DNA from: Burkholderiales bacterium
GTDB taxonomy: Bacteria; Pseudomonadota; Gammaproteobacteria; Burkholderiales; SHXO01
NCBI GenBank assembly: GCA_046160525.1
Contig: JBJXGQ010000406.1
Coordinates: forward strand, 1 to 51,195
Length of the DNA stretch: 51,195 bases
Reading direction: 5' to 3'
Shown here: in pieces, positions 1-17,572 of the stretch
Layout: each line of letters begins with the position of its first letter
Position numbering within the stretch: position 1 is the first letter of the stretch
Notes under the pieces: generated by a model
The model's input: the letters and a program-made list of their open reading frames with translations, nothing else
The model's database searches: none
Told to the model about the DNA's origin: nothing
Translations under genes and position numbers: made by a program

Positions 1-28
1 TTATGCCGGTCATTTTCGGCATGCCCGT

Positions 29-55: not shown

Positions 56-114
56 TTGTTCGAGCCAAAACTGTCTCGCCCTCAATGCGCCATCATCCCG
101 CGCCCCCGTGAGAA

Positions 115-435
115 ATGCGGGCTAGTCGCACCGTCGATACATCCAGGGACACGGACATGGCCTCGGCGATTGCGTGGTGGACAGACCTCACGGAGTCCGG
201 TGGGGAGGGCATGGTGGTAAAGCCTCTCGAGTTCATTCAGTTTGGCAAGCGCGGACTGCTGCAGCCCGCCGTCAAGTGCCGCGGAAGAGAGTATCTGCGA
301 ATCGTATATGGGCCCGAGTACACCGCGCCTGCCAATTTGGAGCGCTTCGTGAAGAAGGAGCCATTGCGCAAGGTGCATGAGTGCGTCTTCGGTGTGCTGG
401 CGCTGGAGAGCGAACCCGTGGATCCGCGGCTTTGA
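115..435 (+). pseudogene. pnkp: C-terminal remnant of bacterial polynucleotide kinase-phosphatase (Pnkp, ligase/adenylyltransferase end) with internal deletion
   Basis: WW..LT..GGEGMVVKP, QPAVKCRGREYLRIVYGPEYT and VHECVFGVLALESEPVDPRL match the Pnkp C-terminus; in-frame TGA at 109-111 precedes it; the segment normally lying between two LER motifs appears absent. Confidence 0.85.
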
Positions 436-448
436 CTCTATTGCGCGC

Positions 449-2515
449 TCAGTTGCCCGCGCGCAACGAAGCCTGCCCGGCACGTAGCGCCAGCGCTCTA
501 ACATCCAATATTTCCAGGCGCGAATACCAACCTTGAAAGGGAGCGCGTTCGGCGTTAGCGAGATGCGACTTTAGCCGTTCCAGGGCGGCAGCCGCAGTTT
601 CCAGATGTGCGCCAGCCCCTGAATTGGGAGTGAACCGCGGTGGTGCCACCATAACGGCATGTGCCAAGGCCGCCGCCGCCCGGTCGAGTTCCACAAGCAA
701 AGCGAGCGGGGTCGTGATCACGTCGTCGAAGAACGGCCGGCGCTCGGGCGCGAGCGTGGAGCGCGCTCGCTGCGCCTGATCGAGTAACGTCGTGCGTAAT
801 GCGGCCGATTGTTCGGTGCCTCGCAGGAGCGCTTCGAACTGAGTCTGTGCACCGCTGTCCCCGGGCACGATGCGGTAACGCTCGGCATCGAAAGGACGGC
901 TGGACGTTCGTTCGCCCTCGATGAGTGCGAGCAGCCGCTCTATGGCCATGCCCAGTCGCAAATCATGGAAGATGAATTGGCGTTCGAAACCGGGTAGCTG
1001 CGAGCGCCGCTGCTGCCAATAGCTGCCAAGCATTGCGCCGTACAAATTCTCAACCTGGCCGCTCGCGCTGCCGAAGTAGCGCGCGAAGATGCGTGTAACC
1101 ACTGTGTCTGTCTGCGTGCGCGGCCCCTCCCACGCCAATGCGGCATGAGCGCTCAGGTTCATGAGAAACTCGCGGACGTTGCCCACGTTCACTTTGGTGA
1201 ACTGTAGCGGGGCCCCGATGCGCTCTTCCGCCATCGCGAAATTGCGCGCGGTCTTCCACGGCCCTTCGCCCTCGGCGTAATGCGATCCGGTGGAGGTGAA
1301 TTGCAGGTTCATGTAGTAACCTCCGCGGCGGTAGGCCGGAGCAGGGTGTTCGAGCAAATCGGTGCCGGGATAGTGATCGCGCCCCTCATTGGCGAAATTC
1401 CATATGAGATCCGCATCCTCCGGCGGGCGGAAGTCCCCCGAGGCGTAGAGGCGGGATAGTTCGCTATAGATTTCGGTGCGCACCAGCGGGCGCGCCGTGC
1501 CCGTTAGGCGGCGCAGCAAATCGAGTTGCCGTTGCAGCATCTGTGTGACCACTTGGCCTTGTAGTGCCGGCGAAGTAGGAGCGTCCGCGAATGCCTCGGC
1601 GAATCCCGCGTCCGTCTTGCCGCGAAAGCCTATTCCCCAGATCATCTCGATGTTTGCTTGCGTGAGGGCATTGACCCGCGCGCTCCAAAACTCTTCGAGG
1701 CCCGCCACATTGGAAAGTAGCAGGTCCTTCGGTGCATGGTTCACACCTTGGGGCCAGTCGCGAAAGGACCCGAGGTATGGACTGGTAACGGCCAGCCCGC
1801 GCGCGCTTGCCGCAAGCACCCTCGGATGCACGAGGCCGCTGCTGTCCAGCAGCGCTTCGCCTACATCCAGGGTGTTCATCTTGAGGCGCAGTAAAGTCTC
1901 GAACAGGATCTCGTCGGTGTCGCGGCCGGTGGTTGTGGCCCAGCCGCGCAGAAAATCCGTGTTGTTTGGAAAAGCGGCGCGCCAGCGCACGTGCGGTGCT
2001 GGAATGCTTCTGTACCAATCGGAAGCAATCTGTAGCGAAGAGCGCCTCACTGGTTGCCACCTTGCCCAGAACGCGAGCGGTGGAATGCCCAGGATTTCGT
2101 CGCAGAAGGTGTAGGCGGCGTAGATCGCTCCGCGCGTTCCGGCTCCTGTCAACACCACTCGCGGCTGGCCGCTCTCGATTTGCATCCAGGCCGCATGCGA
2201 TTCCGGATCTCGCAAGAGCGCAGTGGCCTCGGCGCCCTGCGCGTGCTGCTGGGTGGTGAGCACGATGGCGGGCCGGCCGGCAATCGCCGAGCGCTCCCGC
2301 ACGATGGGTGAGGGCGCGCCCAAGACCGAGGCCAGATCGCGCGCCAAATCCGCTGCGGCACGCGCGAGCGCAGGGTGTTCGCCCGCCGCCACGAACACAG
2401 GCACGCCTGCAGGCAAGACGAGTTCAGAAGCGGGTGCGGGGGCACTTACCGCCATTGCGGTGGCGGCGAGGGAGAGTTCGCACACGAGTACGAAAAAGCG
2501 AGTGCGGATTTTCAT
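449..2515 (-). CDS. Secreted GH115-like glycoside hydrolase
   Basis: Signal peptide; ADLARDL..VLG, LTGAGTRGAIYAAYTFCDEILGIPP..FW, PHVRWR..FPN, FETLLRLKMNTL, GGYYMNLQF and VNVGNVRE resemble GH115-family segments; RBS GGAGG upstream. Confidence 0.65.
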   Translation of the reverse strand: MKIRTRFFVLVCELSLAATAMAVSAPAPASELVLPAGVPVFVAAGEHPALARAAADLARDLASVLGAPSPIVRERSAIAGRPAIVLTTQQHAQGAEATALLRDPESHAAWMQIESGQPRVVLTGAGTRGAIYAAYTFCDEILGIPPLAFWARWQPVRRSSLQIASDWYRSIPAPHVRWRAAFPNNTDFLRGWATTTGRDTDEILFETLLRLKMNTLDVGEALLDSSGLVHPRVLAASARGLAVTSPYLGSFRDWPQGVNHAPKDLLLSNVAGLEEFWSARVNALTQANIEMIWGIGFRGKTDAGFAEAFADAPTSPALQGQVVTQMLQRQLDLLRRLTGTARPLVRTEIYSELSRLYASGDFRPPEDADLIWNFANEGRDHYPGTDLLEHPAPAYRRGGYYMNLQFTSTGSHYAEGEGPWKTARNFAMAEERIGAPLQFTKVNVGNVREFLMNLSAHAALAWEGPRTQTDTVVTRIFARYFGSASGQVENLYGAMLGSYWQQRRSQLPGFERQFIFHDLRLGMAIERLLALIEGERTSSRPFDAERYRIVPGDSGAQTQFEALLRGTEQSAALRTTLLDQAQRARSTLAPERRPFFDDVITTPLALLVELDRAAAALAHAVMVAPPRFTPNSGAGAHLETAAAALERLKSHLANAERAPFQGWYSRLEILDVRALALRAGQASLRAGN

Positions 2516-2535
2516 CCAGGTATCCTCCTAGACAT

Positions 2536-5500
2536 CTAAAAACTATCGGCTCCTCCGCCTTGGTCCGACGCGTTGTAAAAGCGCCCGGCGGAGCGCTCCC
2601 ATAGCAGCACTTGACCCCCAAAGAATTCGCTTTGCACGCCACAGCAAGCCAGCAGAAACGCTGTGTAGCCGGCACCCATGCGGGGCAAGCGCGGATCGTC
2701 CACCACCAGCCACACACGCTCGTTTCGCAACAAAACCTCGCGCAGTTGGTCGACCTTCCATAACAGCTTGCCGCCCGCCCAGCGGTCCACGATCTCGTCC
2801 CCGCGCTGGTAGAGCCCATCGAAAGCGGGCCCTACCATCATGTAGTAATCGGCGCCGCCAAAGACGACGCCCGCGCCGGGAGTCCGCACGGCCGCGATCT
2901 TGTCTTGCGGGCGCCGGTGCGAGGCAACGTAGTCCCACGCGCGGCGGTAATCGATTTCGCGATAGGCGGAATAGGAGCGGCCAATCTTGCCGAACTCGGC
3001 CGAGACCGAGTAAGCCGCGATCAAGATGGCGGCGGCGAGGCCGGCGTAACGCTTGGCGCCATACTGTCCAAATAACCGGGAAGCTCCGGATTGCGCGGAC
3101 GCGATGTCGCGCACCATGGCCCAAGCGGTAATGAGCGCGGCGCACAGGAATACCGGATACAAGCCATATCCATAGCGGCCATTGACTGGTACGACCAGTA
3201 CCGCGAGGATGGGTACGGATACGAGCACGACCGCGTATAGCGTGAGCATCGCCGGCTCTGGGCGTTTTGCCCAGTACACCAATCCAGCCAGGAATAGGAT
3301 TGTCCACAGAGCGTTCTCGCCGTTGTTCATCCAGAAAAAATCGGTGGCCAATTGCGTGAGCACGCTCATGTCTCCGCCCAGCACGTCGGTGAGATGCGGC
3401 ACGAACAGCGGCTCGCTGCGGCTTGACAGCGCCACGTGGGGTGTCAGCGATACCGCCGAAAAGATTCGCATGTCCAGCCAGATGAGCAGCATCATCGCCA
3501 TGAATCCCAGCCAGACATTGCGGTCCTGGCGCCAGCCAAAGGGCCGGTAGCACAACAGGAACACGAGGAAGAAGGCGGCGAAAGTCGTGGCGAAGATCTC
3601 TTGGCTCAATACTGCGCAGGTGGCGAACACGAAGAAGAGAGTTTGGGCCGCCTTGCCCTCGCGCCAGATAAATCCCTTGAGGAAATAGAGCACGCTCAAC
3701 ACGGCGAAGAACTGCATCAACTGGTAGAAGCGTATGAGATTGGTGATGCCCAGCAGCCACGGGTCCAGGGCCAGGGCGAGAGCGGTTAGAAGGGCCGGTA
3801 CATGGCTTCGTGCGATGGCGCGCACCAATGCATAAGACGCGATCACCGTACCCAGACTGGGTACCAGCGAAAAGGCGCGCACGCTGGCCAAGCCGTCGCC
3901 GAACAGACTCATCCATCCGGCTAGCAGATAGTGGAAGAGCGGCGAGCGCGTATATAAGATGCCCGAGGCGGCGCGCGGTAGCCCCTCTCGCAGAATGCCG
4001 CGCGCGGCCTCCCAGCTGGTGTAGTCGTCGCCACTCGGTGGTTGAAACTCGAGGCCCGCCAAGCGCAAGGCGAGCGCCACTGTGCAGATCGCGCCCAGCC
4101 ACATGAGCGGCGAAACGCGCTGCAACGCTGCCCGCAGTGTGCCTGGCCCCGGAAGAGCGCCGCGATGCACCCAGCGCAGCGTTGCCAGCAACAACAAGGG
4201 GCCGGTCGCAAGCCAGAGGGGGCCCGCGCCGGGTGCCAGAAAGATCAGCAAACTGTCGCTTTCGGCGAAACGCGCGCGCAACGTTTCCACCGCGAGTATG
4301 CCAAAGAGCGCGGGGCCCAAGAGCCAGCATCCGCGGATTAATACGGGCGGCTCGGCGCGATCACGGCGCGTCGCTGCGCCGAGCACCCATGCCGCGCCGG
4401 CCAAGGCGGCGGCGAGCGCCAGGCCTTCTACAAACCACTTGACGGTCTGTCCCCATCCGGGTTCCGGTGAGCGTTGGTAGATGATGGGTCCTGGCGCCGC
4501 GGTACGATCATGCGCCACGGCTTGTGTCCATGTGCCTTCGCCGCGCTGCCAGCGCGGGTGATAGGCGGCCAGCGAGCGCCAACCGGTGGCGGTGGATAAG
4601 GTCTGCGCGCCGATTTTGCCGTCCACCGCGATCCATCCGGTCTGTCCGCTTGCGGCCGCGGGGCGGTCCAGCCGAAGCGACAATTGCACGGGTGCGCCAT
4701 CCAAGAAGGGGGACAAGTCGAAAGCATCCACGGAGTCCCCGCCCTGGCCTTCGCCCGCCCACCTCTCGCCTACGAATAGATCGTAAGGGGTGTGAGACCA
4801 AACCCGCACCCAGCCGTGATGTGCTCCCGGAGAGAGGGGCGCCGCAAAGATCTGCTCTTGCGCCGGTAATGGGCTTGCGATAGGCGCGGCCGCGAAGGGC
4901 GCGCGCCACACGGCGGGATCGGCTGCTACATAAAGCGGCAGTTCTTCCGGAGGAGCGCTGGGTTGCGCCGGTTGCCAATCGAGATCGTTGACCCCCGGAT
5001 CGAACCAGGGCATACCGTTGTTCGTCCCGCCTTCGCTGCTGGTGCGCCAAACGCGCGGATCTCCAGAAATTTCCGCATCGAGGTCATGGCCCATCACGTT
5101 GCCGAACACCGCGGCGCGGTTACGGCCCTCCGACTGAACATACAGAGCGATGAGGTTTGGCCCGCGCTTCAAGCGCGGCGTGAGATCGTAGAAATGCAGC
5201 ATGCGCCATTCGCGTTTCGCGGACTTGGCGCTCTGCGCGCCGCCTCCGCGCGGCAACGCATCCTCGCGCACGAGCCGCTGTGCCTGCGCGCTCCATCTAT
5301 CCTGAAAGGCGGTGCCCGCCCGTAGCAGATAACTATTGCTTCCAACCGCCGAGCCGTTGACGTAGAGCTTGTAATCCTCCGCCGCGATGGCAATCCAGGC
5401 ATGACGCGGCTCAAATGCGATGTCCAGGCGGTGCCGATAGTATCCGCGCACGCCAGGTGAGGGCGTGCTCATCCATCCGCCGGGGAGCTCTATCCGCGTG

Positions 5501-5598
5501 ATCGGGGCGCGCTCCGGGGCAATCGCGTTAGTGATATGGGCGGCGAGCAATAAGCCGCCCAATAGGAAAAACGCGCAGAATCCCAGTGCGCGCCGCAT
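2536..5598 (-). CDS. GT-C fold (GT39/PMT/ArnT-like) integral membrane glycosyltransferase with N-terminal extracytoplasmic beta-sandwich domains
   Basis: ALRLAGLEFQPPSGDDYTS, YTRSPLFHYLL, IRFYQL, NGRYGYGLYP and many TM helices; N-terminal part has YKLYVNG..VG and YDLTPRLKRGPNLIAL (rhamnosidase-N/galactose-binding-like). Start placed at ATG 5598, just after the upstream stop at 5604. Confidence 0.75.
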   Translation of the reverse strand: MRRALGFCAFFLLGGLLLAAHITNAIAPERAPITRIELPGGWMSTPSPGVRGYYRHRLDIAFEPRHAWIAIAAEDYKLYVNGSAVGSNSYLLRAGTAFQDRWSAQAQRLVREDALPRGGGAQSAKSAKREWRMLHFYDLTPRLKRGPNLIALYVQSEGRNRAAVFGNVMGHDLDAEISGDPRVWRTSSEGGTNNGMPWFDPGVNDLDWQPAQPSAPPEELPLYVAADPAVWRAPFAAAPIASPLPAQEQIFAAPLSPGAHHGWVRVWSHTPYDLFVGERWAGEGQGGDSVDAFDLSPFLDGAPVQLSLRLDRPAAASGQTGWIAVDGKIGAQTLSTATGWRSLAAYHPRWQRGEGTWTQAVAHDRTAAPGPIIYQRSPEPGWGQTVKWFVEGLALAAALAGAAWVLGAATRRDRAEPPVLIRGCWLLGPALFGILAVETLRARFAESDSLLIFLAPGAGPLWLATGPLLLLATLRWVHRGALPGPGTLRAALQRVSPLMWLGAICTVALALRLAGLEFQPPSGDDYTSWEAARGILREGLPRAASGILYTRSPLFHYLLAGWMSLFGDGLASVRAFSLVPSLGTVIASYALVRAIARSHVPALLTALALALDPWLLGITNLIRFYQLMQFFAVLSVLYFLKGFIWREGKAAQTLFFVFATCAVLSQEIFATTFAAFFLVFLLCYRPFGWRQDRNVWLGFMAMMLLIWLDMRIFSAVSLTPHVALSSRSEPLFVPHLTDVLGGDMSVLTQLATDFFWMNNGENALWTILFLAGLVYWAKRPEPAMLTLYAVVLVSVPILAVLVVPVNGRYGYGLYPVFLCAALITAWAMVRDIASAQSGASRLFGQYGAKRYAGLAAAILIAAYSVSAEFGKIGRSYSAYREIDYRRAWDYVASHRRPQDKIAAVRTPGAGVVFGGADYYMMVGPAFDGLYQRGDEIVDRWAGGKLLWKVDQLREVLLRNERVWLVVDDPRLPRMGAGYTAFLLACCGVQSEFFGGQVLLWERSAGRFYNASDQGGGADSF

Positions 5599-5603
5599 GA
5601 CCG

Positions 5604-6983
5604 TCACCACGTTTCGGGCCGCAGCGAGCGGGCGTGCAACTCGTGCGCCCGCGCTACGTCGCCGCGGTGAAAGGCGGCCCAACTGTCCAATACCGCCACT
5701 TGCGCGCCAATGGCCAAGCGCTTATAGCCGAGGTAACGCTGCAACCGGGCCACCTGCCGCATGGCTTGCGCGGCCCCCGTGTAATCTCCCTGCTTCATGC
5801 GCACCAGAGAGAGCCCGTACCAAGCCATGGGATTGGCGGGCAAGTAGAGCAAGGATTCGCGCCAATTCTCCGCGGCTGCGCCGGTTTGTCCCTGGTCGAA
5901 AGCATGAATGGCGGCTTCCGAGAGCGCCACGGCCAAGTAGCGGTTAAGCGGCGCGGCTTGCGGGTACAGCGTGTGCGCCTGGCGCAGCAAGCCGGCCGCC
6001 GTGTGCGGCGCGCCTTGCTGCAAGGCGTCGTAAGAACGCGCAAGCAGGGATTCCAGCGCAGCGGGTTGGTCCTCAATCCCTGCCACATGGCCAAGCCGGC
6101 GGTAATGTGCCCAACTCTCCCTTAGGGCGCGCTTGCCAGATGGCGCCGCCCGTAGATGCTCGAGCGCCAGGGCATGGTCGCCGCGCCGCTGCGCACCTTC
6201 GGCCTGAAGCAGATGCCACTCCGCGGCGAGGCGCGGCCCCAGCGGAATTGCGATCAAGACCGCCACGGCCAAGGCGCACCCACTCATCGCGCTCCAAAAT
6301 GGGTGCCATCCACCCGGGTTCGCCAGGTGCAATCCGCTCAGCACCAGTACGATTCCCACGGCCGCGCAGGCAATGAGCCGCGAATGGAAGAAAGCCAAGA
6401 ATGCGGGCGAGAGCCCCAGCACTTCCTCGATCGCTCGGTGCGCATTGGCGAGAGAAAAGTACGAAGGCCGCCAAGGGGGGGCGGAGCCGGGCAGCGGAAG
6501 GTTGGTGACCGATTCTCGGGCAAAGGTCTGCCCGGCTCTCCAATCGGTCTGCTGGTTAGCCAAATTCTCATCGATGTCCTCGGCGACGCGGTTGATCTCA
6601 TGGTAAAGAAATGCTCTTTCCTGCATGCGCTCCGCTTGAAAATGGGCGAGCCAGCACGGGTAGGCGAGCGTTGCGGCCGGAAGGCACCACGCCAGCCGCA
6701 CCGCCCAGCGCGTTTCCTTAAGCCCGCGCCAACACGCCCGCAGAAACAGCAATCCTGCCACGACGGTACCAATCCGCAAGAGCAAGTCGAGCAAGTAGAT
6801 CTCCTCCACCAGTATTGGAGCGCCGCTGGAGGAGATGGAAGACAAAGCGGCCGAGGGATGCTTAGGCCAAGGCGAAAGCGCGCACGCGATGAGCAACAGC
6901 GCACCGAGACTAGTCATCCACACAGTACGATCGGCGGCCAATGCCCGCTGGTAGAATTCACGCGGATGAATATGCGCTCGCAT
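5604..6983 (-). CDS. Membrane protein with C-terminal TPR repeats
   Basis: Several hydrophobic helices then TPR-like helices (PANPMAWYGLSLVRMKQGDY..A); abuts neighbouring genes. Confidence 0.7.
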   Translation of the reverse strand: MRAHIHPREFYQRALAADRTVWMTSLGALLLIACALSPWPKHPSAALSSISSSGAPILVEEIYLLDLLLRIGTVVAGLLFLRACWRGLKETRWAVRLAWCLPAATLAYPCWLAHFQAERMQERAFLYHEINRVAEDIDENLANQQTDWRAGQTFARESVTNLPLPGSAPPWRPSYFSLANAHRAIEEVLGLSPAFLAFFHSRLIACAAVGIVLVLSGLHLANPGGWHPFWSAMSGCALAVAVLIAIPLGPRLAAEWHLLQAEGAQRRGDHALALEHLRAAPSGKRALRESWAHYRRLGHVAGIEDQPAALESLLARSYDALQQGAPHTAAGLLRQAHTLYPQAAPLNRYLAVALSEAAIHAFDQGQTGAAAENWRESLLYLPANPMAWYGLSLVRMKQGDYTGAAQAMRQVARLQRYLGYKRLAIGAQVAVLDSWAAFHRGDVARAHELHARSLRPETW

Positions 6984-7964: not shown

Positions 7965-10489
7965 TGCAGGTTGGTGCGAACCGTTGGCGAGAAATGGCTC
8001 TCGGTACCCGGCGCTTGCGAGTCTGCGAGTTCACGAGTGCCGGGTTGCGATGTTGCCACCGCTACCTTGTCCCCTTCCTTCAACGCCGTTTGCCCGTTCA
8101 CCACCACCAAGTCTCCCACGCCAATGCCCCCGGATTCGACCGCGATCCAACCCTCCGAGGCGCCAGAGTAAGTGACGGGCTCGACGCGCAATTCATTGGA
8201 ATTTCCGACGGCGAGTACCGTGCCCGTGCGCCCCGAGTAGCGCGTCAATGCGCGTTCAGGTAACGCGGCCGCCTTATATCGTTGCTCGAAAATCGCATAG
8301 CCGTTCATGCCCGGAAGCAGGCCTCCAGTGCGCACATGCTCGCTCGGAATGGACATCCACACCGAGAACGTGAATGGTGGCGGGTCGCCCGCGCGCCGCT
8401 GCTCGGCGCTTCGTACCGCGTGCGACACGCGAAGCACCTGCGCGGGGAATGGCTGTCCAGGCCGGGCCCGAAGATAAAACCTTCCCTGCGCTCCTTCGCG
8501 CAGCATGCCGGCATAGCGCTGGTCGATCTCGGCTCGAAAGACCATCTGGTCTCCAAGGACCATGAGCGGTTCTTTCAAGTTCACCAGATTCTCGCCCAAC
8601 TGAACGTTGCGCTCGATCACCGTACCTGCCATGGTGGCGGCAATGACCACACGCCGGTCTCGCACGGAAGTACCTGCCCAGGGCAGAGGCTCGCCGGTGA
8701 CCGTGGCGCTGCGCGAGCGCAGCGAATGCGCATACTCCTCAAATGCCAGCCGCGAGGCGATCTCGGCCCGCTGCATGCTGGCCGTGGCGCCGTCCAGGCG
8801 TGCCTTGCTGGTGAAGTTAGACTCGTAGAGTCTTTGCTCTCGCTCCAAGTCGAGATTGGCTTGTTTGCGCTCGGACTGGCTCAGCTGGCGCCGCAAGTCG
8901 AACATGCGGGTCGTATGTGCGCCTGGGCTGATGTACAGCAAAGGTCTGCCGCGTTGAATGCTCTCGCCTGCTTCCACCAGGATCTGCGTGACGATACCAG
9001 GTACCTCGCTGTGCACTGGAATCTCGTTCAGGTAGGCGGTCAAGCCCTCCGCCGCGATGACGCGTACCATGGTGCGTAGTTGCACGGTTTCGGCTTGCAC
9101 CTCGATGGGCCGGCCGAGCACTCGCATCACGGCAGGATAGCCCAATTTGCCGGCGAACGCGCGCGACTGGGGCGACCAATAGGCAGGCACGAAGACATAC
9201 AGTGCGACTAAGGCGCTCACAGCCACGGCGGCAATCAAGATCTTTCCTTGGATGCCACGCGCGCCAATTTTCGCAACGGGTTGCGCCCGAGAGCGCACGC
9301 GGGATTCCAGGTAGTTACCGATGGCATCGCGATAGATGCCGAGTAGCTCCGCATTAATGCGCTCCCAATTGAAATGTTCTTGTACGTGGTGCCACCCCGA
9401 TCGCGCCAGCTTGGCGGCGAGCGCATGATCTTGCAGCAGCTTCACCACTGCGGCGGCGAGAGCCGCCGGGTCCTTTTGCGGCACTAGCAAGCCGGTTCGT
9501 TCATGCTGGATTACGTCCGGGATGCCTCCGACTTCGGAGGCTACAACCGGCGTCATGAAACTCAAAGCCTCGATGAGCACCACTCCCAATCCTTCCGTAT
9601 CGCCGCGTTCATCGACGATGGCGGGTAGCACGAATACGTCGGCGCTCGTGTAATGTTGCTCGAGAACCGTGGCCGAAACGGCACCGTGGAAGGTGACTAT
9701 TTCGCTTAGGCCGAGCGCCGTCGCAAGTGCCATCCAATCGTCTGCCCGGTCACCATCTCCCACCACGTGCAGATGCACAGGCAGCTGCGCCGCGATGGCC
9801 GGCAGCGCGTGCAGCAGAACATCGAGCCCCTTGCGCGCCACGAGGCGGCCCGTGAACAAGATTTCCTTTACCGGCTTATGCGGATCCTTGTAGGATGGCC
9901 GCGCGTTCACGGTGCAGCCGAAGGGCAAGACCGTTACCGCGCGCGCGGTGAGCCGCGCCACCTCGCCGGCGGTGTACCGGGAATTGCAAATCACGGCGGC
10001 GGCATGGCGTAGAGCGGGCCTGAGGAACCACGTCACGAAGGGATACTTCTTTTGTAGCAGAAGTTCCGCGCCATGGAAGGTGAACACGACGGGCGCGCGC
10101 GTGAGCCAGCCCGCCATAAGCCCCCAAAGGCCGTGCGGAAAGGGCCAGTGGACGTGGATCAAATCGAAGCGTTGTTTGCGGCACAAGGCGATGGCATGCA
10201 CCAGTCCAAAGACAATGTAAAAGGCCGCGACCGCGAGATAGAGCGGGTTGCGCAGCCGGTTCGGCGCGCCTTGATTGTGGGTTAGATTTTCCCAGCGCCT
10301 TAAAAAGTAGCGAAAGCGATGGACTGTCACGCCATCTAGAACTTGGCTGCCCCCTCCTTCGTAGCTGGGAGCGAACACGTGTACATCCATGCCGCTCGCC
10401 TTTAATTGCCGCACGCTCTCCACCAAGAACGGGACATTGGTATCGCTCTCGGAGAGTTTGTAGCTCGATGTCATTACACAGATCTTCAT
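7961..10489 (-). CDS. GT4 glycosyltransferase fused to an RND/HlyD-type periplasmic adaptor (membrane fusion protein)
   Basis: aa 1-~390: DLIHVHW, FTGRLVARKG, EGLGVVLIEAL...PVVASEVGGIPDVI; one TM helix; then SEVPGIVTQILVEAGESI, coiled coil, GTVIERNVQLGE, LPGMNG and GDLVVVNGQ..LKEGDKV. Confidence 0.8.
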   Translation of the reverse strand: MKICVMTSSYKLSESDTNVPFLVESVRQLKASGMDVHVFAPSYEGGGSQVLDGVTVHRFRYFLRRWENLTHNQGAPNRLRNPLYLAVAAFYIVFGLVHAIALCRKQRFDLIHVHWPFPHGLWGLMAGWLTRAPVVFTFHGAELLLQKKYPFVTWFLRPALRHAAAVICNSRYTAGEVARLTARAVTVLPFGCTVNARPSYKDPHKPVKEILFTGRLVARKGLDVLLHALPAIAAQLPVHLHVVGDGDRADDWMALATALGLSEIVTFHGAVSATVLEQHYTSADVFVLPAIVDERGDTEGLGVVLIEALSFMTPVVASEVGGIPDVIQHERTGLLVPQKDPAALAAAVVKLLQDHALAAKLARSGWHHVQEHFNWERINAELLGIYRDAIGNYLESRVRSRAQPVAKIGARGIQGKILIAAVAVSALVALYVFVPAYWSPQSRAFAGKLGYPAVMRVLGRPIEVQAETVQLRTMVRVIAAEGLTAYLNEIPVHSEVPGIVTQILVEAGESIQRGRPLLYISPGAHTTRMFDLRRQLSQSERKQANLDLEREQRLYESNFTSKARLDGATASMQRAEIASRLAFEEYAHSLRSRSATVTGEPLPWAGTSVRDRRVVIAATMAGTVIERNVQLGENLVNLKEPLMVLGDQMVFRAEIDQRYAGMLREGAQGRFYLRARPGQPFPAQVLRVSHAVRSAEQRRAGDPPPFTFSVWMSIPSEHVRTGGLLPGMNGYAIFEQRYKAAALPERALTRYSGRTGTVLAVGNSNELRVEPVTYSGASEGWIAVESGGIGVGDLVVVNGQTALKEGDKVAVATSQPGTRELADSQAPGTESHFSPTVRTNLQ

Positions 10490-11511
10490 GCGGGTCTCCT
10501 TGCAAACGCGCTAGCCACGGGTTCCATCGCTGGGTAATCCGTGGCCCCGGCTGTCTCCATTTGGCGGTGATGCACCTGTTCCGCGATACTGTAAGAGGGT
10601 TCCTCGCGGGTCTGGTGAGAAGCCAGCATTTCCGCCAGGATTCCCATGGAGAACATTTGCGCTCCCAGAAGCATGAAACCGGTGGAATAAATCATCAGCG
10701 GCCGCTCGCTGAGTGGCAAGTAGGCAAGGGGATCGATCAAGCGCACCACCCATGTTAGCGACAGATAAGCAAGCACGCCCGTGCCGCTCAGCAGCATCAG
10801 CAGTCCGATACTTCCGAGCACATGCTGCGGGCGCTGCCCAAAGCCAGTCAGAAATTTGACCGTGAGCAGATCCAGGAAACCCTTCAACAGGCGGCTCATG
10901 CCGTACTTGGATTCGCCGAAGCGGCGCGCGCGGTGACGCACTTCCATTTCGCCCACGCGAAAGCCGCGCGCGGCCGCGAGCACGGGGATGAAGCGGTGGC
11001 GCTCGCCATACAGACGCACTTCGAGCAGCACGCTGGAGCGGTAAGCCTTCATGCCGCAGTTGTGATCGTGTAAAGCAACGCCCGTCACCCAACTGACCAT
11101 GCGATTGAATACGCGGCTGGGTAGCACTTTATGCCAGGGATCGTGGCGCTCGCGCTTCCACCCGCTGACTAAATCGAGGTCGTTGTGCAACTTGGCGAGC
11201 AAGGCGGGTATTTCCGCGGGGTCGTCTTGAAGATCGGCGTCCAGCGTGACGATCGTGTCGCCACGCGCCGTGGCGAATCCGGCGCTCAGCGCCGCAGCCT
11301 TGCCGAAGTTGCGGCGAAATCGAATGCCTTTAACGCGCGCATCGCTTCGTACCAGCGCGCGGATCGTCTTCCAGGAATCGTCCGTGCTGCCATCGTCGAC
11401 AAATACCGCTTCGAGGTCCAGGCGCGCGGCCGCCGCCACTTGCACGATTTCATCCCACAGGCGCGCGAGGCTGCGGGCTTCGTTATACACAGGAATTACG
11501 ATGGATATCAT
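10486..11511 (-). CDS. GT2 polyprenyl-phosphate sugar transferase (ArnC/DPM1/GtrB-like)
   Basis: ISIVIPVYNE, VDDGSTD, RRNFGKAAAL, TLDADLQDDP, GERHRFIP, two C-terminal TM helices; AAGGAG RBS before ATG 11511. Confidence 0.9.
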   Translation of the reverse strand: MISIVIPVYNEARSLARLWDEIVQVAAAARLDLEAVFVDDGSTDDSWKTIRALVRSDARVKGIRFRRNFGKAAALSAGFATARGDTIVTLDADLQDDPAEIPALLAKLHNDLDLVSGWKRERHDPWHKVLPSRVFNRMVSWVTGVALHDHNCGMKAYRSSVLLEVRLYGERHRFIPVLAAARGFRVGEMEVRHRARRFGESKYGMSRLLKGFLDLLTVKFLTGFGQRPQHVLGSIGLLMLLSGTGVLAYLSLTWVVRLIDPLAYLPLSERPLMIYSTGFMLLGAQMFSMGILAEMLASHQTREEPSYSIAEQVHHRQMETAGATDYPAMEPVASAFARRPA

Positions 11512-11579
11512 TGTGGTCTCCTTATCCCAATCAGCGAACCTTAGCGGTAAGTTTTGCGTGCGAACCGCCGTAGTCTTCA

Positions 11580-12094
11580 TGTTTCATGTTAGTAGGAGCG
11601 CTAAGTCCGGATCGATCCAACGAAAATGAATGCGAGAACAACGACGCCTGATGACGACTCATTGCAAGTTGTATTTCACATTTTCTATCGCGTGGGGATA
11701 TTTCAATTCCGTACTAAGACTGTATATACAATCAGTCAGCGATGGAGTATGGCGACGTATCTGTCGCTACAAAGAGAATGTCAAATCCACGGGTAATCCA
11801 GGCGCCGAACGAGAAAGCCGAGCGAATCGTGTCTCACGCAAGCGCCACTTATCGCCCCGCGATTCCTAAGGCCGTAAATTAAATGTAGCCAATAATGTTT
11901 TGTTTATAAGTGCATTGCAAAGTGGTGGCACCCTTGCTGCGATGCCCTCGGAAAGTGCGCATATTCGGAGGATTCTTCACATCTCCTCTAAGCGTATGCG
12001 CGGATGCCCTTGTTTCGGTCATGCCAACGCCGCCCAGGGGTGGATATGCCGGTTTCCGCAAGAGAGACCGGAAAAATAGAAGTGAGAGACCTAC
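11580..12094. promoter_or_regulatory. AT-richer divergent promoter region between the glycosylation operon and the TPR/phosphatase pair
   Basis: Visibly AT-rich, no credible ORF, flanked by divergent starts; exact promoter elements not resolved. Confidence 0.5.
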
Positions 12095-12991
12095 ATGACT
12101 TGTACTGAATTTCAGGCACGCCCCGCGCCCTCTGTCTCCATATCACGACATCCGAAGCCTGCATCGCTACCCTCGCTCGCCGGGCTAATCGTAGGCTTCA
12201 GCTTGTGTGCCGTGCAGCCAGCGTGGACGCATGGCGATTCGCACGAACGCATCGAGGCGTTGAGCGAACAACTGAAACAACAGCCCGAAAGCGCGCCCCT
12301 CTACCTACGCCGGGGCCAATTGCACCGGCAAGAAGGGCGCTGGGACGCGGCCTTGAAGGATTTCGAGCGCGCGATCGAACTGGACTCCGAGTTGGACGAG
12401 GCGGTTCTCATGCGCGGGCTCACATTGCTCGATGCGCGCAGCCCCACTGCGGCGATCGCCGCGTTAGATAGTTTCCTCGCCCGCTCACCCTCGCATCACG
12501 TGGCATTGCTAACGCGTGCTCGAGCATGGGCCAGTCTGGGCGCCGGGCATGCCGCGGCGAGCGATTTTTCGCGCGTATTGGCGCAGCGCCCGAGCGCGGA
12601 TCTATACGTGGAAAGAGCGCGTGCCCTGGCCAGCATGGGTGCGGGCTATATGGACGAAGCGTTGCGCGGTCTCGACGAGGGAATCGCCGCCCTAGGGCCC
12701 AATGTGGTGCTCATCGATGTCGCGGTGGAACTGGAACTCGCGCGCGGAGAACCTGAGAAGGCTTTGGAGCGCCTGGCGCAGCGCACAGGAGAGGCGGCAT
12801 CGCCCGAGAGCGAGATGCGCCGGGGAGAAATTCTGGAGCAAAACGGCCGGGTCGCGGAGGCGCTCGCCGCCTATAAGCAAGCCCGGCAGGCGCTGGCCAA
12901 ACGCGCGCTCGTGCGGCGCCATACGCGAGCCGCCAGCGAACTCGATAACCGCCTTCACGCCGCTTTCGAGCGTCTTGGCGTCCGCGACTGA
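12095..12991 (+). CDS. Exported TPR-repeat protein
   Basis: Signal-like LIVGFSLCAVQPAWT followed by HGDSHERI; TPRs such as LYLRRGQLHRQEGRWDAALKDFERAIELD; true start may lie downstream. Confidence 0.8.
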   Translation: MTCTEFQARPAPSVSISRHPKPASLPSLAGLIVGFSLCAVQPAWTHGDSHERIEALSEQLKQQPESAPLYLRRGQLHRQEGRWDAALKDFERAIELDSELDEAVLMRGLTLLDARSPTAAIAALDSFLARSPSHHVALLTRARAWASLGAGHAAASDFSRVLAQRPSADLYVERARALASMGAGYMDEALRGLDEGIAALGPNVVLIDVAVELELARGEPEKALERLAQRTGEAASPESEMRRGEILEQNGRVAEALAAYKQARQALAKRALVRRHTRAASELDNRLHAAFERLGVRD

Positions 12992-13000
12992 TATACAAGC

Positions 13001-16000
13001 ATGAATGGGAGACCGAACGTGGAATTGCATATGAAAAAAGAAGTGGTTCTTGAATCAGGATTGCCGGGCGCTTTGTGGCTGGCGCACGCGCTCTGCTGCG
13101 CGCTATTGCTCGCGATTTGCATGGTCATTGCGCCATCGAGTGCGCAAGCGCAAACGGTAGTGCGCGGCCCATACCTGCAATCGGCTACTCCCACGAGCAT
13201 CGTGGTGCGATGGCGCACCAGCGTGGCAACCGACAGCCGTGTTCGCTATGGCGCCTCCGCCACGAGCTTGACGGCGTCGGCGGGCAGCACCGTCTCGGCC
13301 ACCGAGCATGCCGTAACGCTAACGGGCTTGGCGCCCGCCACCAAGTATTTCTACTCCGTGGGGTCGTCCACCGCGAGTTTGGCCGGCGGCGACTCGACCC
13401 ACTTCTTCATCACGCCACCGTCCGTGGGCGCGGTCCAACCCACGCGTATCTGGGTCATCGGGGATGCCGGCGAGAACAGCACCGGCCAGCGCCAAGTACG
13501 CGACGCTTATCTCGCCCGCACCGGCGCCAACTACACCCATCTATGGCTCATGCTGGGCGACAATGCCTACGATAGCGGCACCGATGCCGAGTATCAGGCT
13601 GCGGTCTTCAATATCTATCCCACCTTGCTTCGGCAAAGCGTCGTGTGGCCCACCTTGGGAAACCACGATGGCGCAACCGCTAACTCGTCCACTCAGACCG
13701 GGCCCTATTACGACATCTTTACCCTGCCGAGAAATGGCGAGGCTGGCGGCGTTCCCTCCAATACCGAAGCCTATTACTCGTTCGACTATGCCAACATTCA
13801 TTTCGTGGTGCTGGATTCCTTCGAGACCAATCGCGCGAGCAATGGCGCGATGCTAAATTGGCTGCGCCAGGATCTGGCGGCCACCAGGCAAAAATGGATC
13901 ATCGCCTTCTGGCACCACCCGCCTTACTCCAAGGGCTCGCACGATTCGGACAGCGAGACGGAATTGGTGCAAATGCGCGCCAATGCGCTGCCAATCTTCG
14001 AGGACTTCGGCGTGGATCTGGTGCTCACCGGACACAGCCATGCCTACGAGCGTTCTTTTCAGATCGATGGTCATTACGGGAGTTCCAGTACCTTCAATCC
14101 GGCCACCATGCAGGTCAACGGTGGTGCCGGACCTTACGAGCGGGTCACCGACGGATCCGTTCCCGGCGCTCTGTACGCCGTGGCGGGGAGTTCGGGAAGC
14201 GTCAGCGGTTCCGGTAGTCTCAACCATCCCGTGATGTATACCTCGGTCCGGGAACTCGGTTCGATGGTGTTGGATATCAATGGTGACACGCTCGACGCCG
14301 TGTTCATAAACAACACTGGGACCGTGCGCGACAGTTTTCGAATGGTGAAGACGGTGGGTCTACCCAGCGTCACCGTTAGCGCGACCGATGCCACCGCTAC
14401 CGAAGCGGGGCTAACGACCGGAACCTATTCCGTAACGCGTACGGGCAGCACAACGGCGCCGCTCACCGTTACTTACAGCATGAGCGGATCGGCCACCCAG
14501 GGCAGCGACTACTCAGCCCTGACGGGCAGCGTGACCATACCGGCGGGGGCCGCGGCGGCGACGATCACGCTCGTACCGATTAACGACGCTTTATTGGAAC
14601 CCACCGAGACCGCTATCCTGACACTTTCCGCCAATGCCGCCTACCGCACCGGCACGCCGGGAAGCGCGACAATCACAATCGCAAGCGACGAGCAGCCACC
14701 TACCGTAAGCATCACCGCGAGCGACTCCTTGGCGACCGAGGCGGGTCCCACCACCGGAACCTTCACCGTCTCGCGCACCGGTGACGCTACGGCTCCGCTC
14801 ACCGCCTCCCTGACCGTAGGAGGTACTGCCACCAGCGGCAGCGACTACACCGCCTTACCGGCAAGTGTGACGATTCCGGCTGGCTCGGCGAGCGTATTGG
14901 TCACGGTCACGCCCGTCAATGACACATTAGTGGAGGCCGACGAGACCGTTGTACTCAGTTTGGCAAGTAGCGCGAACTACACGGTGGGGACGGCAAGCGC
15001 GACGATCACTATCGCAAGTGATGATGCCGCCCCGGCAAGCGTAAGCGTGGCCGCGACGGACGCCAGCGCCACCGAGGCCGGGCCCACTACCGGCACATTC
15101 ACCATCACACGAACCGGTGCCACTACCGCGGCGCTGGCTGTCAACTACACCATGAGCGGAACGGCCACGGCGGGAAGCGATTACCTGTCACTGAGTGGAA
15201 GCGTGACCATTCCGGCAGGCGCGGCGAGCGCCACGGTGACCATCACTCCGGTCAACGATACCCTGGTAGAGAGCAACGAGACGGTCGTACTCACCTTGGC
15301 GAATGCTTCCACCTATACGGTGGGAACCGCCAGCGCGACCGTCACCCTCACTAGTGACGACGTCGCACCTGCCACCGTGAACGTGACGGCAAGCGATGCT
15401 TCGGCCACTGAAGCAGGTCCAACCACGGGTACCTTCACCGTCTCGCGCACCGGTGACGCTACCGCTCCGCTCACCGCCTCCCTGGCCGTAGGAGGTACTG
15501 CCACCAGCGGCGGCGATTACACCGCTTTACCGGCCAGTGTGACGATTCCGGCTGGCGCGGCGAGCGTTGCGGTCACGGTCACGCCTGTCAACGACACATT
15601 GGTGGAGGGCGACGAGACCGTTGTACTCAGTTTGGCAAGTAGCGCGAACTACACGGTCGGGACGGCGAGCGCGACGGTCACTATAACAAGTGACGATATC
15701 GCCCCGGCCAGCGTAAGCGTGGCCGCGACAGACGCCAGCGCCACCGAGGCCGGGCCGACCACCGGTGCCTTTACCGTAACCCGAACCGGGGCCACGACCG
15801 CGGCGCTGTCCGTCAACTACACCATGAGCGGTACGGCCACGGCGGGAAGCGATTACCTGTCACCGAGTGGAAGCGTCACTATCCCAGCGGGCGCGGCGAG
15901 CGCCACGGTTACCATTACTCCGGTCAACGATACCCTGCTCGAATCGAATGAGACGGTAGTACTGACCTTGGCCGCGGGTGTGGCGTACAGCACCGGCAGT

Positions 16001-16876
16001 CCCGCCAGTGCCACCGTTACCATCACGAGTGACGAGGTCGCGCCTACGGTGAGTGTCGCTGCCGCCGACAGCTCCGCCGCGGAATCTCCGCTCGATACCG
16101 GTGTTTTCAGGATAGCGCGCACGGGCGCGACCACTTCGGCGCTGACGGTCGGATTCAGCATGAGTGGAACGGCCACGAACGGTGCCGACTACGTGAGTCT
16201 TCCGGCCAGCATTACGATCCCGGCTGGGTCAGCATCCGTGCAGGCAACCGTCACCCCCATTAACGACACGTTGATTGAAAGCGGCGAGACCGTGGTCTTG
16301 ACCCTTTTCACCGGCACCGGCTATGCGCTGGGCACTCCGGCAAGCGCCAGCGTGACGCTAACAAGCGAGGACGGTTCGATACCCACTCCGGCGAACCACA
16401 TCGTGAGCCGGGTGTTCGACAACAAGAACGGGAAGGCATATTGGACGGGCGGTCCCGATGGTTCGGAGCCGGCGGACGATTTGCGCTCCATGACCTTCGA
16501 TCCGCTCAAGATCGAGGTCGAGGCGGGCGCGACCTACTGGTGGGAAGCGGAATATCAAGACCCGGCCGCAACGGCAGTTCATCCAACCGTCGTTAAGGTC
16601 ATTATCGATAACCGCCCGGAAGAAGACTGGTCGGGAAGCTTCACGGCGGAAGCGCGTATCGGTACCACCTTGCTGGCTTCCGTCCAGTTGCCGGTCAATG
16701 GCAACAAGGATCCGGTCACAGGCAAGGGGACTCGAACGCGCTACGAGTGGGATCTCTCGGCGCTGGTGAAAACCCGGGAAGGTTTGGCGGGACTCAAGCT
16801 GCGACTGATCAACAACGCTCGTAACGGCAAGAAGGTTTGGGCGGTCTATTCGGTGACGCAAAGCAACTCCCAGTAA
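13001..16876 (+). CDS. Secreted purple-acid-phosphatase-type metallophosphoesterase with FN3-like N-domain, six Calx-beta repeats and an unassigned C-terminal domain
   Basis: Signal peptide ending SAQA; RGPYLQ start of the PAP N-domain; all five metal-ligand blocks GDAG, GDNAY, GNHD, FWHHP, GHSH; repeats T.SGTAT.GSDY...V.IPAG...ITPVND.L.E..ETVVLTL; start may be ATG 13031. Confidence 0.9.
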   Translation: MNGRPNVELHMKKEVVLESGLPGALWLAHALCCALLLAICMVIAPSSAQAQTVVRGPYLQSATPTSIVVRWRTSVATDSRVRYGASATSLTASAGSTVSATEHAVTLTGLAPATKYFYSVGSSTASLAGGDSTHFFITPPSVGAVQPTRIWVIGDAGENSTGQRQVRDAYLARTGANYTHLWLMLGDNAYDSGTDAEYQAAVFNIYPTLLRQSVVWPTLGNHDGATANSSTQTGPYYDIFTLPRNGEAGGVPSNTEAYYSFDYANIHFVVLDSFETNRASNGAMLNWLRQDLAATRQKWIIAFWHHPPYSKGSHDSDSETELVQMRANALPIFEDFGVDLVLTGHSHAYERSFQIDGHYGSSSTFNPATMQVNGGAGPYERVTDGSVPGALYAVAGSSGSVSGSGSLNHPVMYTSVRELGSMVLDINGDTLDAVFINNTGTVRDSFRMVKTVGLPSVTVSATDATATEAGLTTGTYSVTRTGSTTAPLTVTYSMSGSATQGSDYSALTGSVTIPAGAAAATITLVPINDALLEPTETAILTLSANAAYRTGTPGSATITIASDEQPPTVSITASDSLATEAGPTTGTFTVSRTGDATAPLTASLTVGGTATSGSDYTALPASVTIPAGSASVLVTVTPVNDTLVEADETVVLSLASSANYTVGTASATITIASDDAAPASVSVAATDASATEAGPTTGTFTITRTGATTAALAVNYTMSGTATAGSDYLSLSGSVTIPAGAASATVTITPVNDTLVESNETVVLTLANASTYTVGTASATVTLTSDDVAPATVNVTASDASATEAGPTTGTFTVSRTGDATAPLTASLAVGGTATSGGDYTALPASVTIPAGAASVAVTVTPVNDTLVEGDETVVLSLASSANYTVGTASATVTITSDDIAPASVSVAATDASATEAGPTTGAFTVTRTGATTAALSVNYTMSGTATAGSDYLSPSGSVTIPAGAASATVTITPVNDTLLESNETVVLTLAAGVAYSTGSPASATVTITSDEVAPTVSVAAADSSAAESPLDTGVFRIARTGATTSALTVGFSMSGTATNGADYVSLPASITIPAGSASVQATVTPINDTLIESGETVVLTLFTGTGYALGTPASASVTLTSEDGSIPTPANHIVSRVFDNKNGKAYWTGGPDGSEPADDLRSMTFDPLKIEVEAGATYWWEAEYQDPAATAVHPTVVKVIIDNRPEEDWSGSFTAEARIGTTLLASVQLPVNGNKDPVTGKGTRTRYEWDLSALVKTREGLAGLKLRLINNARNGKKVWAVYSVTQSNSQ
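14360..16372 (+). repeat. Six tandem ~112-aa Calx-beta coding repeats; units 2-3 and 4-5 form a 672-nt duplication
   Basis: CTTCACCGTCTCGCGCACCGGTGACGCTAC occurs at 14761 and 15433, and GAGACCGTTGTACTCAGTTTGGCAAGTAGCGCGAACTACACGG recurs at the same offset. Confidence 0.9.
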
Positions 16877-16897
16877 CAAGGAGCGGCGCTAAATTAT

Positions 16898-16925
16898 GCA
16901 AGGGCCGCCCATGCGCGGCCCTTGC
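16898..16925. terminator. Hairpin between convergent genes, likely bidirectional terminator
   Basis: GCAAGGGCCGC-ccatgc-GCGGCCCTTGC, perfect 11-bp stem; AT-rich run follows on the minus strand. Confidence 0.65.
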
Positions 16926-16940
16926 TCGCGGTGATGGAAT

Positions 16941-17564: not shown

Positions 17565-17572
17565 AGCGAAGC

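Follow-up and report, generated by a model that had tools for sequence, protein, structure and literature searches.

Three-component extracytoplasmic glycosylation systems, such as GtrA/GtrB/Gtr*, ArnC/ArnEF/ArnT, CsbB/GtcA/YfhO, and the GT136 pentofuranose system, share a glycosyltransferase family 2 (GT2) polyprenyl-phosphate-sugar synthase, a flippase, and a periplasmic glycosyltransferase of the GT-C type; in the GT136 system, the acceptor glycan is bound by a carbohydrate-binding module that is part of the GT-C (PMC11127046). We analyzed a 51,195-nucleotide stretch of DNA from a Burkholderiales bacterium (contig JBJXGQ010000406.1, positions 1 to 51,195; hereafter, the window), in which six minus-strand genes encode a GT2, a GT4 fused to a membrane fusion protein (MFP), a flippase-like LPG_synthase_TM protein, a membrane protein with tetratricopeptide repeats (TM-TPR), a GT-C, and a GH115-like glycoside hydrolase. 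An earlier note on this DNA had read the operon as a system dedicated to glycosylating the Calx-beta stalk of a phosphatase encoded beside it. By sequence homology, GT2, GT4, LPG_synthase_TM, MFP, TM-TPR, and GT-C form a conserved cassette found in at least seven bacterial phyla. With a confidence just short of even, we propose that this cassette most likely assembles a glycan, probably an exopolysaccharide-like polymer, on the periplasmic side of the inner membrane and then moves it outward, and the phosphatase appears to belong to a separate module.

Like the three-component systems, the cassette has a predicted GT2 with C-terminal helices and a predicted GT-C with an acidic residue in the first loop. 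It differs from them in its flippase candidate, which is of the MprF type (LPG_synthase_TM) and not of the GtrA, SMR, or MATE type, none of which is found in the operon; in its additional GT4, MFP, and five-transmembrane (5-TM) TPR components, often joined by a TolC-like and a glycanase-like gene; and in the lack of any acceptor-glycan locus (O antigen, teichoic acid, or lipid A) linked to it. In archaea, the arCOG00899 neighborhood contains the same trio, an MprF-like flippase (AglD C-terminal domain), an AglD-like GT2, and a PMT/STT3-like enzyme. The LPG_synthase_TM homologs encoded there are predicted glycosylation flippases, and the three proteins are predicted to act jointly in glycosylating S-layer proteins or lipids; the neighborhood includes no MFP, TolC-like protein, GT4, or TM-TPR protein (PMC5898192).

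With respect to export, the cassette shares with tripartite efflux and type 1 secretion assemblies an adaptor with a predicted TolC-docking tip, but not their energized ABC, RND, or MFS transporter. In polysaccharide systems that pair a synthase with an MFP, among them Alg8/Alg44, chain synthesis and translocation both fall to a processive membrane GT2 synthase, which is usually gated by cyclic di-GMP (c-di-GMP), whereas the adaptor of the cassette is tied to a soluble-type GT4 and a GT-C, and its GT2 is ArnC-like. The mixed-linkage beta-glucan system BgsA/BgsB/TolC and cyanobacterial cellulose synthase likewise combine a glycosyltransferase with a HlyD-type adaptor and a TolC-type channel and work without an ABC, RND, or MFS pump (PMC13438883). 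Finally, the eukaryotic TMTC1-4 and PMT protein O-mannosyltransferases share with the cassette a PMT/ArnT-clan core, two adjacent acidic residues in the first loop on the lumenal or periplasmic side, and TPRs on the same side of the membrane (PMC7801869); in the cassette, however, the TPRs are located on a separate 5-TM protein, and the GT-C carries a lectin-like N-terminal region that these enzymes lack and no MIR domain.

A full-text literature search found no published description of this combination, as the earlier note, which did not recognize it as a described system, had anticipated; PMC4971617 merely lists HlyD proteins of a cyanobacterium. The cassette is therefore apparently undescribed as a combination, although its parts and its logic are of known kinds. 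Its strongest surprises are an MprF-type flippase as a fixed member, an MFP coupled to a GT4 and a GT-C, and a set of six genes that is conserved across seven phyla.

The evidence for a conserved cassette comes from a census of homologous loci. A HMMER search of 1.84 billion representatives with the GT-C protein returned 948 relatives at an E value of ≤1e-3 and 103 at ≤1e-30, about 30 of the latter having the same length and architecture. Based on an alignment of 30 GT-C relatives (A1), a single peptide pattern led to 102 confirmed stretches among 185,579 species genomes, and 80 loci were kept. Proteins were clustered all against all, hidden Markov models (HMMs) were then built from the cluster members, and families were counted in the 57 loci whose flank upstream of the GT-C gene spans at least 7 kb. 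By these HMMs, the MFP and TM-TPR families are each present in 53 loci, the GT4 family is present in 52, and the GT2 and LPG_synthase_TM families are each present in 49; all five GT-C partners occur jointly in 45 of the 57 loci, and some of the 12 misses are due to crude open reading frame (ORF) calling in high-GC loci. A TolC-like OEP family (14 loci) and a family of ~360 amino acids (23 loci) are less constant. The loci belong to Gammaproteobacteria, Cyanobacteria, Planctomycetota, Verrucomicrobiota, Lentisphaerota, Spirochaetota, and Bdellovibrionota. A diverged protein of ~350 amino acids encoded 3' of the GT4 gene in Planctomycetota, Verrucomicrobiota, Bdellovibrionota, and Spirochaetota also proved to be an LPG_synthase_TM protein.

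Across these loci, the genes are arranged in two blocks, GT2-GT4-(flippase-like) and MFP-(TM-TPR)-(GT-C), each of which stays intact even where the two are inverted with respect to each other. In 61 of 68 loci, the gene immediately upstream of the GT-C gene is that for the TM-TPR protein, and the window is an additional case with a gap of 5 bp, which bears out the earlier proposal that a TPR protein is tied to the GT-C. In a GT-C tree based on a careful search, the window sequence falls into a 100/100 clade with three gammaproteobacterial sequences and one Lentisphaeria sequence, with cyanobacterial sequences forming its sister clade; a second, deep clade comprises Planctomycetota, Verrucomicrobiota, and Bdellovibrionota. 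A metagenome scan with the GT4::MFP protein returned one 1.47-kb contig (L088), which carries a GT2 gene and the start of a GT4 gene.

Despite this breadth, the cassette is rare. A search of 40 relatives did not find the GT-C protein, and only one of 400 other sampled genomes of its phylum was positive with the GT-C core profile. That genome (G571) contains a divergent version (L121:10036-13091), in which the lectin-like N-terminal part and the GT-C core are two ORFs (474 and 544 amino acids) that follow the genes for the MFP and the TM-TPR protein; there is an OEP gene in the vicinity, whereas GT2, GT4, and flippase-like genes are all absent within about 10 kb.

Some cassettes contain further genes. 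In Planctomycetota, a sigma54 response regulator and Hpt, often with H-NOX, are embedded in the cassette (regulators in Planctomycetota and Verrucomicrobiota are exemplified by L049:5151-7020, L078:4265-4888, and L052:3548-4966), and in Verrucomicrobiota, the cassette GT2 is fused to a receiver domain. Embedded regulators of this kind are typical of matrix production, and we counted them for the polymer reading. Sugar-modifying genes inside some cassettes encode an acetyltransferase::aminotransferase fusion, a GFO/IDH/MocA oxidoreductase, and FkbM methyltransferases, the last being located between the TM-TPR and GT-C genes in L021 and L028. One or two 2-oxoglutarate (2OG)-Fe(II) oxygenase genes lie between the MFP and TM-TPR genes in L035 (6733-8452) and seven other cyanobacterial loci of the Pseudanabaena type. 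We also considered an SdrD_B-like family found in four planctomycete loci as a conserved adhesin-like substrate, but its positions and strands vary, and it was rejected.

On the donor side, the window GT2 matches Glycos_transf_2 (105 bits) and aligns over its full length (residues 23 to 337) to the ArnC model PRK10714 with 192.6 bits, without reaching the equivalog cutoff of 529; it scores 128.8 bits against PgfS, which is also below the equivalog cutoff, and 60 bits against PgaC/IcaA, for which the cutoff is 422. DxD-type acidic motifs and two C-terminal hydrophobic helices can be read from its sequence. Since the GT2s of all seven other loci that were tested likewise match ArnC/PgfS best and far below the equivalog cutoffs, the cassette GT2s are predicted to be polyprenyl-phosphate glycosyltransferase-like relatives of ArnC and not ArnC equivalogs. 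The GT4 (residues 1 to 392 of the fusion; Glyco_trans_1_4, 133 bits) shows weak matches to lipid-acting GT4s, namely, GlcN_PG_synth (64.6 bits) and, in L008, MGlcDAG synthase, but matches of the same weakness, every one of them far from reaching its cutoff, extend to many unrelated GT4 families. The flippase-like protein matches PF03706 (162.4 bits) and TIGR00374, "flippase-like domain-containing protein" (79.3 bits). In MprF, LPG_synthase_TM constitutes the flippase domain, and the activity characterized for it is phospholipid flipping (PMC5898192). A GT4::LPG_synthase_TM fusion of 772 amino acids, confirmed with Pfam, is encoded on the minus strand of L051 (1292-3610), and the proteins P0232 and P0233 (725 and 765 amino acids; precomputed Pfam) have the same architecture. 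This recurrent fusion suggests that the flippase-like protein is tied to the lipid-linked product of the GT4. Taken with the co-occurrence of the flippase-like protein and the GT-C across phyla, the ArnC/PgfS matches agree with the lipid-carrier logic that had been suggested for GT2, flippase-like protein, and GT-C.

The GT-C is predicted to consist of a signal anchor, a beta-sandwich region of ~360 amino acids, three linking transmembrane (TM) segments, a PMT_2-type core, and a C-terminal domain of ~150 amino acids. The ATG at position 5598 is the likelier start, because the alternative TTG at 5682 would overlap the upstream gene. The window protein matches PMT_2 with 28.8 bits (cutoff, 26.1); PMT_2 matches 24 of 28 GT-C core sequences, and among the family, PMT is found in 20 and PMT_2 in 18 of 30 members. 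Directly after the hydrophobic core at residues 499 to 511, in the presumed first periplasmic loop, D524 is strictly conserved and E525 strictly or almost strictly so; this position corresponds to D55/E56 of ArnT and D77/E78 of Pmt1 (PMC7801869). Pfam detected neither a MIR domain nor a fused TPR array in the GT-C. With respect to the N-terminal region, profile A1 matches the beta-sandwich regions of GH78 rhamnosidases in the PDB (3w5m, 1.4e-10; 6i60, 6.5e-9), the 3w5m region being one that we take to be a CBM67, as well as the "Lectin" chains 6t0q and 6kbj (5.5e-5), which presumably represent the Pleurotus ostreatus lectin. This lectin is classed as CBM67-like and binds Gal, GalNAc, GlcNAc, and L-Rha, according to a review (PMC11186620). 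Pfam further recognizes Glyco_hydro_2_N in 10 and Bac_rhamnosid_N in 6 of the 30 family members, so that the beta-sandwich domains noted earlier have support at the sequence level. Because they follow a signal anchor with a positive N terminus, residues 27 to 384 are probably periplasmic.

The TM-TPR partner is never fused to the GT-C in the 81 loci. An alignment of 69 TM-TPR sequences reveals five conserved hydrophobic cores with a positive-inside pattern, the loops at residues 88 to 92 and 223 to 230 being short and basic and those at 41 to 64 and 116 to 201 being acidic. Following the positive-inside rule, the N terminus of this protein would be inside, and its C-terminal TPR region would be periplasmic.

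In the window, the GT4 is followed by a TM helix (residues 417 to 435) and a HlyD/RND-type MFP (residues 464 to 811) that matches HlyD_3 and HlyD_D23 in Pfam and scores 93.5 bits over its whole length against the RND_mfp model TIGR01730, whose cutoff is 94.9. At the aligned hairpin tip (residues 550 to 561), it has the sequence RxxxLxxxxxxS, which is the TolC-docking motif of MacA, AcrA, and HlyD (PMC3391258); among 67 cassette MFPs, L is kept in 50 and S/T in 48. The fusion of GT4 to MFP is unique to the window among the 81 loci, and a search of 5.8 billion proteins found no second case of the full fusion. Its closest relative, P0231 (80% identity), has GT4 residues 152 to 226 in frame with the MFP and lacks the stretch corresponding to window residues 227 to 430, that is, the C-terminal half of the GT4 and the TM helix. 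Although P0231 is possibly a decayed copy, its in-frame GT4 fragment and MFP imply that both parts were already in one frame in this sublineage. The genome that includes the window has at least eight OEP-family genes on other contigs. ABC, RND, and MFS transporters, which are named as the transporter families of tripartite efflux and type 1 secretion assemblies (PMC8277102), are absent from the window operon as judged by Pfam, and none is conserved in the loci. Neither PilZ nor a GGDEF-type or other c-di-GMP module was detected in the operon by Pfam.

The last gene of the operon encodes a putative glycanase. Its product exceeds the cutoff of PF15979 by far (90.4 bits versus 27), has BtGH115A (5by3, 5.8e-13) as its best PDB match, followed by the GH115 chains 7pug, 6nps, and 4c90, and belongs to a clade of proteins of ~700 amino acids; on the strength of the catalytic-module match, it qualifies as a GH115 family member. 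A homolog lies next to the GT-C gene in only 1 of the 80 loci (L014). The ~360-amino-acid family of the census (alignment A2; L035:14045-15127 and 29 other loci), which is unrelated to the GH115-like protein, is encoded near the cassette, usually directly after the GT-C or the flippase-like gene, and has repeated Q..DG-type motifs. It has no Pfam or PDB match, the sole lead being an Atlas feature similarity of 0.93 to clusters that carry Ulvan_lyase_N. The glycoside hydrolase had been suggested to act as an editor; a glycanase-like editor gene beside the GT-C is plausible.

From the family assignments, the co-occurrence, order, and fusions of the genes, and the absence of the phosphatase from homologous loci, we infer the following biochemical steps. 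The ArnC-like GT2 would charge polyprenyl phosphate with a sugar, and the GT4, which is always encoded beside the GT2, would extend or prime a lipid-linked intermediate in the cytoplasm. The MprF-type LPG_synthase_TM protein would then flip the lipid-linked sugar. In the periplasm, scaffolded by the 5-TM TPR protein, the GT-C may hold the growing or acceptor glycan by means of its N-terminal sugar-binding-like beta-sandwiches and transfer the sugar using the D524-E525 pair. The MFP would join this machine to a TolC-family channel, encoded in the operon of some relatives and elsewhere in this genome, and the GH115-like enzyme may trim the product. We favor a glycan over a protein as the acceptor because the GT-C's N-terminal region is related to GH78 and lectin domains and to Glyco_hydro_2_N/Bac_rhamnosid_N and because glycanase-like and sugar-modifying genes accompany the GT-C. 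There are documented precedents for a GT-C with an acceptor-binding module (GT136) and for polysaccharide export by a glycosyltransferase, an MFP, and TolC without a pump. A more specific version of this proposal, which we consider doubtful, is that the cassette represents a new assembly and export route for a polysaccharide or lipoglycan, present in at least seven phyla and distinct from the Wzx/Wzy, ABC-transporter, and synthase-dependent pathways. In this route, the GT-C would be a periplasmic polymerase fed with polyprenyl-monophosphate-linked sugars by the GT2/GT4 pair and the MprF-type flippase, and the MFP would connect it directly to a TolC-type duct, with no ABC, RND, or MFS pump involved.

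Several observations weigh against the assembly of an exported polymer. The cassette contains no initiating phosphoglycosyltransferase, Wzx/Wzy, ABC transporter, or processive synthase, so that polymer initiation and transfer to the MFP are left unexplained. A TolC-like gene is missing from the window operon and from 43 of the 57 full-flank loci, and the arginine of the RLS motif is kept in just 16 of the 67 MFPs. The GT-C fold, its sugar-binding site, and its topology are read from sequence; the PMT_2 score of the window protein is just 2.7 bits over the cutoff, and the core profile matched no solved GT-C among PDB sequences. In Pfam, the GT-C resembles PMT-type enzymes, protein O-mannosyltransferases among them, and its TPR partner is reminiscent of TMTC. 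With respect to the census, the family HMMs were built from the same loci that they count, the Pfam check covered representatives, and the locus ORFs come from a simple, crude longest-ORF script.

Two other readings of the cassette draw on these points. It could be a glycolipid or lipoglycan route, in which a membrane lipid is glycosylated by the GT4 and the resulting glycolipid is flipped by the MprF-type protein, the GT-C extends it in the periplasm from the polyprenyl-phosphate-linked sugar made by the GT2, and the MFP with a TolC-type channel brings a lipid-anchored glycan to the outer membrane. Mycobacterial PIM/LM/LAM synthesis follows this logic: as in the cassette, GT4 steps in the cytoplasm are combined with a GT2 polyprenyl-phosphate-mannose synthase and with elongation by GT-C enzymes in the periplasm, although the cassette lacks inositol-lipid genes, belongs to another type of envelope, and adds an MFP and TolC-type export parts. 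The GT4::LPG_synthase_TM fusions, which suggest that the flippase-like protein handles the lipid-linked product of the GT4, would fit such a route, as would the phospholipid flipping ascribed to this domain (PMC5898192), the matches to GlcN_PG_synth and MGlcDAG synthase, and the lack of polymer-initiation and polymer-export genes. However, the GT4 has equally weak matches to unrelated GT4 families, a second flippase, none of which is conserved, would be needed for the polyprenyl-phosphate-linked sugar, and the glycanase-like neighbors and the lectin-like domain suit a polymer at least equally well; we regard this route as unlikely. Alternatively, the cassette may serve general protein O-glycosylation, with the PMT_2-type GT-C and the periplasmic TPR adaptor forming a split analog of TMTC that acts on secreted or envelope proteins encoded elsewhere, which the MFP/TolC part exports or positions. 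The PMT and PMT_2 matches of the GT-C family, the near-constant adjacency of the TM-TPR and GT-C genes, the two 2OG-Fe(II) oxygenases of the Pseudanabaena-type loci, the correspondence of D524-E525 after TM1 to the acidic pairs of ArnT and Pmt1, and the existence of prokaryotic GT-C+TPR fusions related to TMTC, the last two described in PMC7801869, are all compatible with this idea. The acidic pair, however, is common to all PMT/ArnT-clan enzymes, whatever their acceptor, no MIR domain was found by Pfam, and the neighborhoods hold no conserved candidate substrate, that is, no recurrent large or Ser/Thr-rich ORF. Protein glycosylation also offers no explanation for the sugar-binding-like domains at the N terminus, the glycanase-like genes, or the additional GT4; we consider it quite unlikely.

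The proposal of the earlier note, a cassette dedicated to glycosylating the Calx-beta stalk of the neighboring phosphatase with TPR proteins as adaptors, can be judged by co-occurrence. The two units are divergent neighbors 514 bp apart, both lie within positions ~130 to 16950, a stretch unmatched in 27 congeners, and the stalk (residues 456 to 1130) is indeed dominated by Thr (20.7%), Ala (17.6%), and Ser (12.4%), the sum of 50.8% being the highest of nine Calx-beta stretches compared. As a special feature, however, this bias did not stand: in eight further proteins from the class, the Calx-beta stretches contain 20 to 32% S+T and 31 to 42% S+T+A, so that the composition is largely a trait of the domain family, with the window protein at the top of the range, and the stalk, matching Calx-beta in six stretches (217 bits), is predicted to consist of six folded repeats and not of a disordered, mucin-like linker. 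The phosphatase gene contains no DNA-level tandem repeats. Its catalytic part has a purple acid phosphatase architecture, with Pur_ac_phosph_N (45.3 bits) and Metallophos (57.4 bits) above their cutoffs. In tblastn searches with the window proteins, no homolog of any part of the phosphatase (catalytic domain, Calx-beta stalk, or C-terminal domain) or of the soluble TPR protein encoded next to it was found in any of the 80 cassette loci, a set without the contigs of the three closest GT-C relatives (75, 60, and 58% identity). No large protein family recurs beside the cassette in these loci, and among 1054 ORFs from the 80 loci and the window, the window's own phosphatase is the only Ser/Thr-rich one (≥200 amino acids, S+T of ≥24%); homologous operons without a Ser/Thr-rich neighbor are the outcome that the earlier note had itself named as refuting its proposal.

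Conversely, the phosphatase occurs without the cassette. Matches at an E value of ≤1e-20, to its catalytic domain or its Calx-beta repeats, are found in 60 of 401 genomes of the class, where catalytic-domain homologs reach up to 60% identity and have variable C-terminal parts. None of the 11 phosphatase-homolog loci contains a GT-C, TM-TPR, flippase-like, or MFP gene. In four of them (L101, L102, L103, and L093), a homolog of the soluble TPR protein adjoins the phosphatase, and in two (L105:9476-12307 and L106:2805-5591), it is fused to it, which argues that the soluble TPR protein is a partner of the phosphatase and not a glycosylation adaptor. The soluble TPR protein and the phosphatase thus form a conserved pair and an independent two-gene module. 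As a target of the cassette, the phosphatase is highly improbable, this reading being close to refuted by the co-occurrence data, and the juxtaposition would be a neighborhood accident and not a dedicated enzyme-substrate pair.

The genes of both units are listed in Table 1; the ORF list, Pfam, and NCBIfam place all eight at the coordinates given earlier.

Table 1. Cassette genes, phosphatase module, and intervening spacer in the window
Feature	Positions	Strand	Basis
GH115-like glycoside hydrolase, 688 aa, signal peptide, last operon gene	449..2515	-	PF15979
GT-C glycosyltransferase, 1020 aa	2536..5598	-	Pfam PMT_2/PMT
Membrane TPR protein, 459 aa	5604..6983	-	Pfam TPR_16/TPR_2 at 357-415
LPG_synthase_TM (MprF-flippase-domain-like) membrane protein, 326 aa	6984..7964	-	PF03706
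GT4::TM helix::HlyD/RND-type MFP, 842 aa	7961..10489	-	Glyco_trans_1_4, HlyD_3, HlyD_D23
GT2, ArnC/GtrB-type polyprenyl-phosphate glycosyltransferase, 364 aa, first cassette gene	10486..11580	-	Glycos_transf_2
Divergent spacer, 514 bp, between cassette and phosphatase module	11581..12094	.	Computed gap
Secreted TPR protein, 298 aa	12095..12991	+	Pfam TPR families
Secreted purple-acid-type phosphatase, 1291 aa, six Calx-beta repeats, ~160-aa C-terminal domain	13001..16876	+	Pfam

The gaps between the six minus-strand genes are +20, +5, 0, -4, and -4 bp. In the divergent spacer, a promoter/terminator scan and a repeat search detected only weak promoter-like matches and a 10-nucleotide palindrome, and an Rfam search of window positions 1 to 20000 yielded no matches. 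The DNA search of the 27 congeners found no counterpart of positions ~130 to 16950 apart from short, weak matches to GT2-like or phosphatase-like genes located elsewhere, and congener synteny restarts at 16956; the cassette and the phosphatase module therefore share one strain-specific stretch of ~16.8 kb. On the left, the stretch is truncated where the contig breaks off in a multicopy repeat, and four DNA sequencing runs show the region merely as unitigs of 200 to 700 bases at low depth that bridge nothing. The repeat at the contig end (~125 bp, window positions 1 to ~130) recurs on at least nine other contigs of the same genome and in congeners. Another multicopy repeat (~140 bp, positions 18933 to 19073), with a depth spike of 10 to 50x, lies between a GS-like gene and the next gene. 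Positions 17573 to 32722 contain a gene set that resembles the N-methylglutamate pathway of methylamine use, with the GS-like gene, sarcosine-oxidase/GcvT-like genes, glutamate-synthase-like pieces (GATase, GXGXG, and Glu_synthase), and an FAD oxidoreductase, followed by a formamidase. The genus shows conservation of the GS-like gene.

In conclusion, we have identified a six-family cassette that recurs across bacterial phyla independently of the phosphatase encoded beside it in the window, and Litoribacillus, Haloferula, Tundrisphaera, Pseudanabaena, and Leptolyngbya provide cultivable carriers in which its product could be identified. If our proposal is correct, it would add a widely distributed but rare machine to those that build envelope glycans. 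The MprF-type flippase domain would gain a role in bacterial glycan assembly, and a TolC-type adaptor would work with glycosyltransferases instead of a pump.

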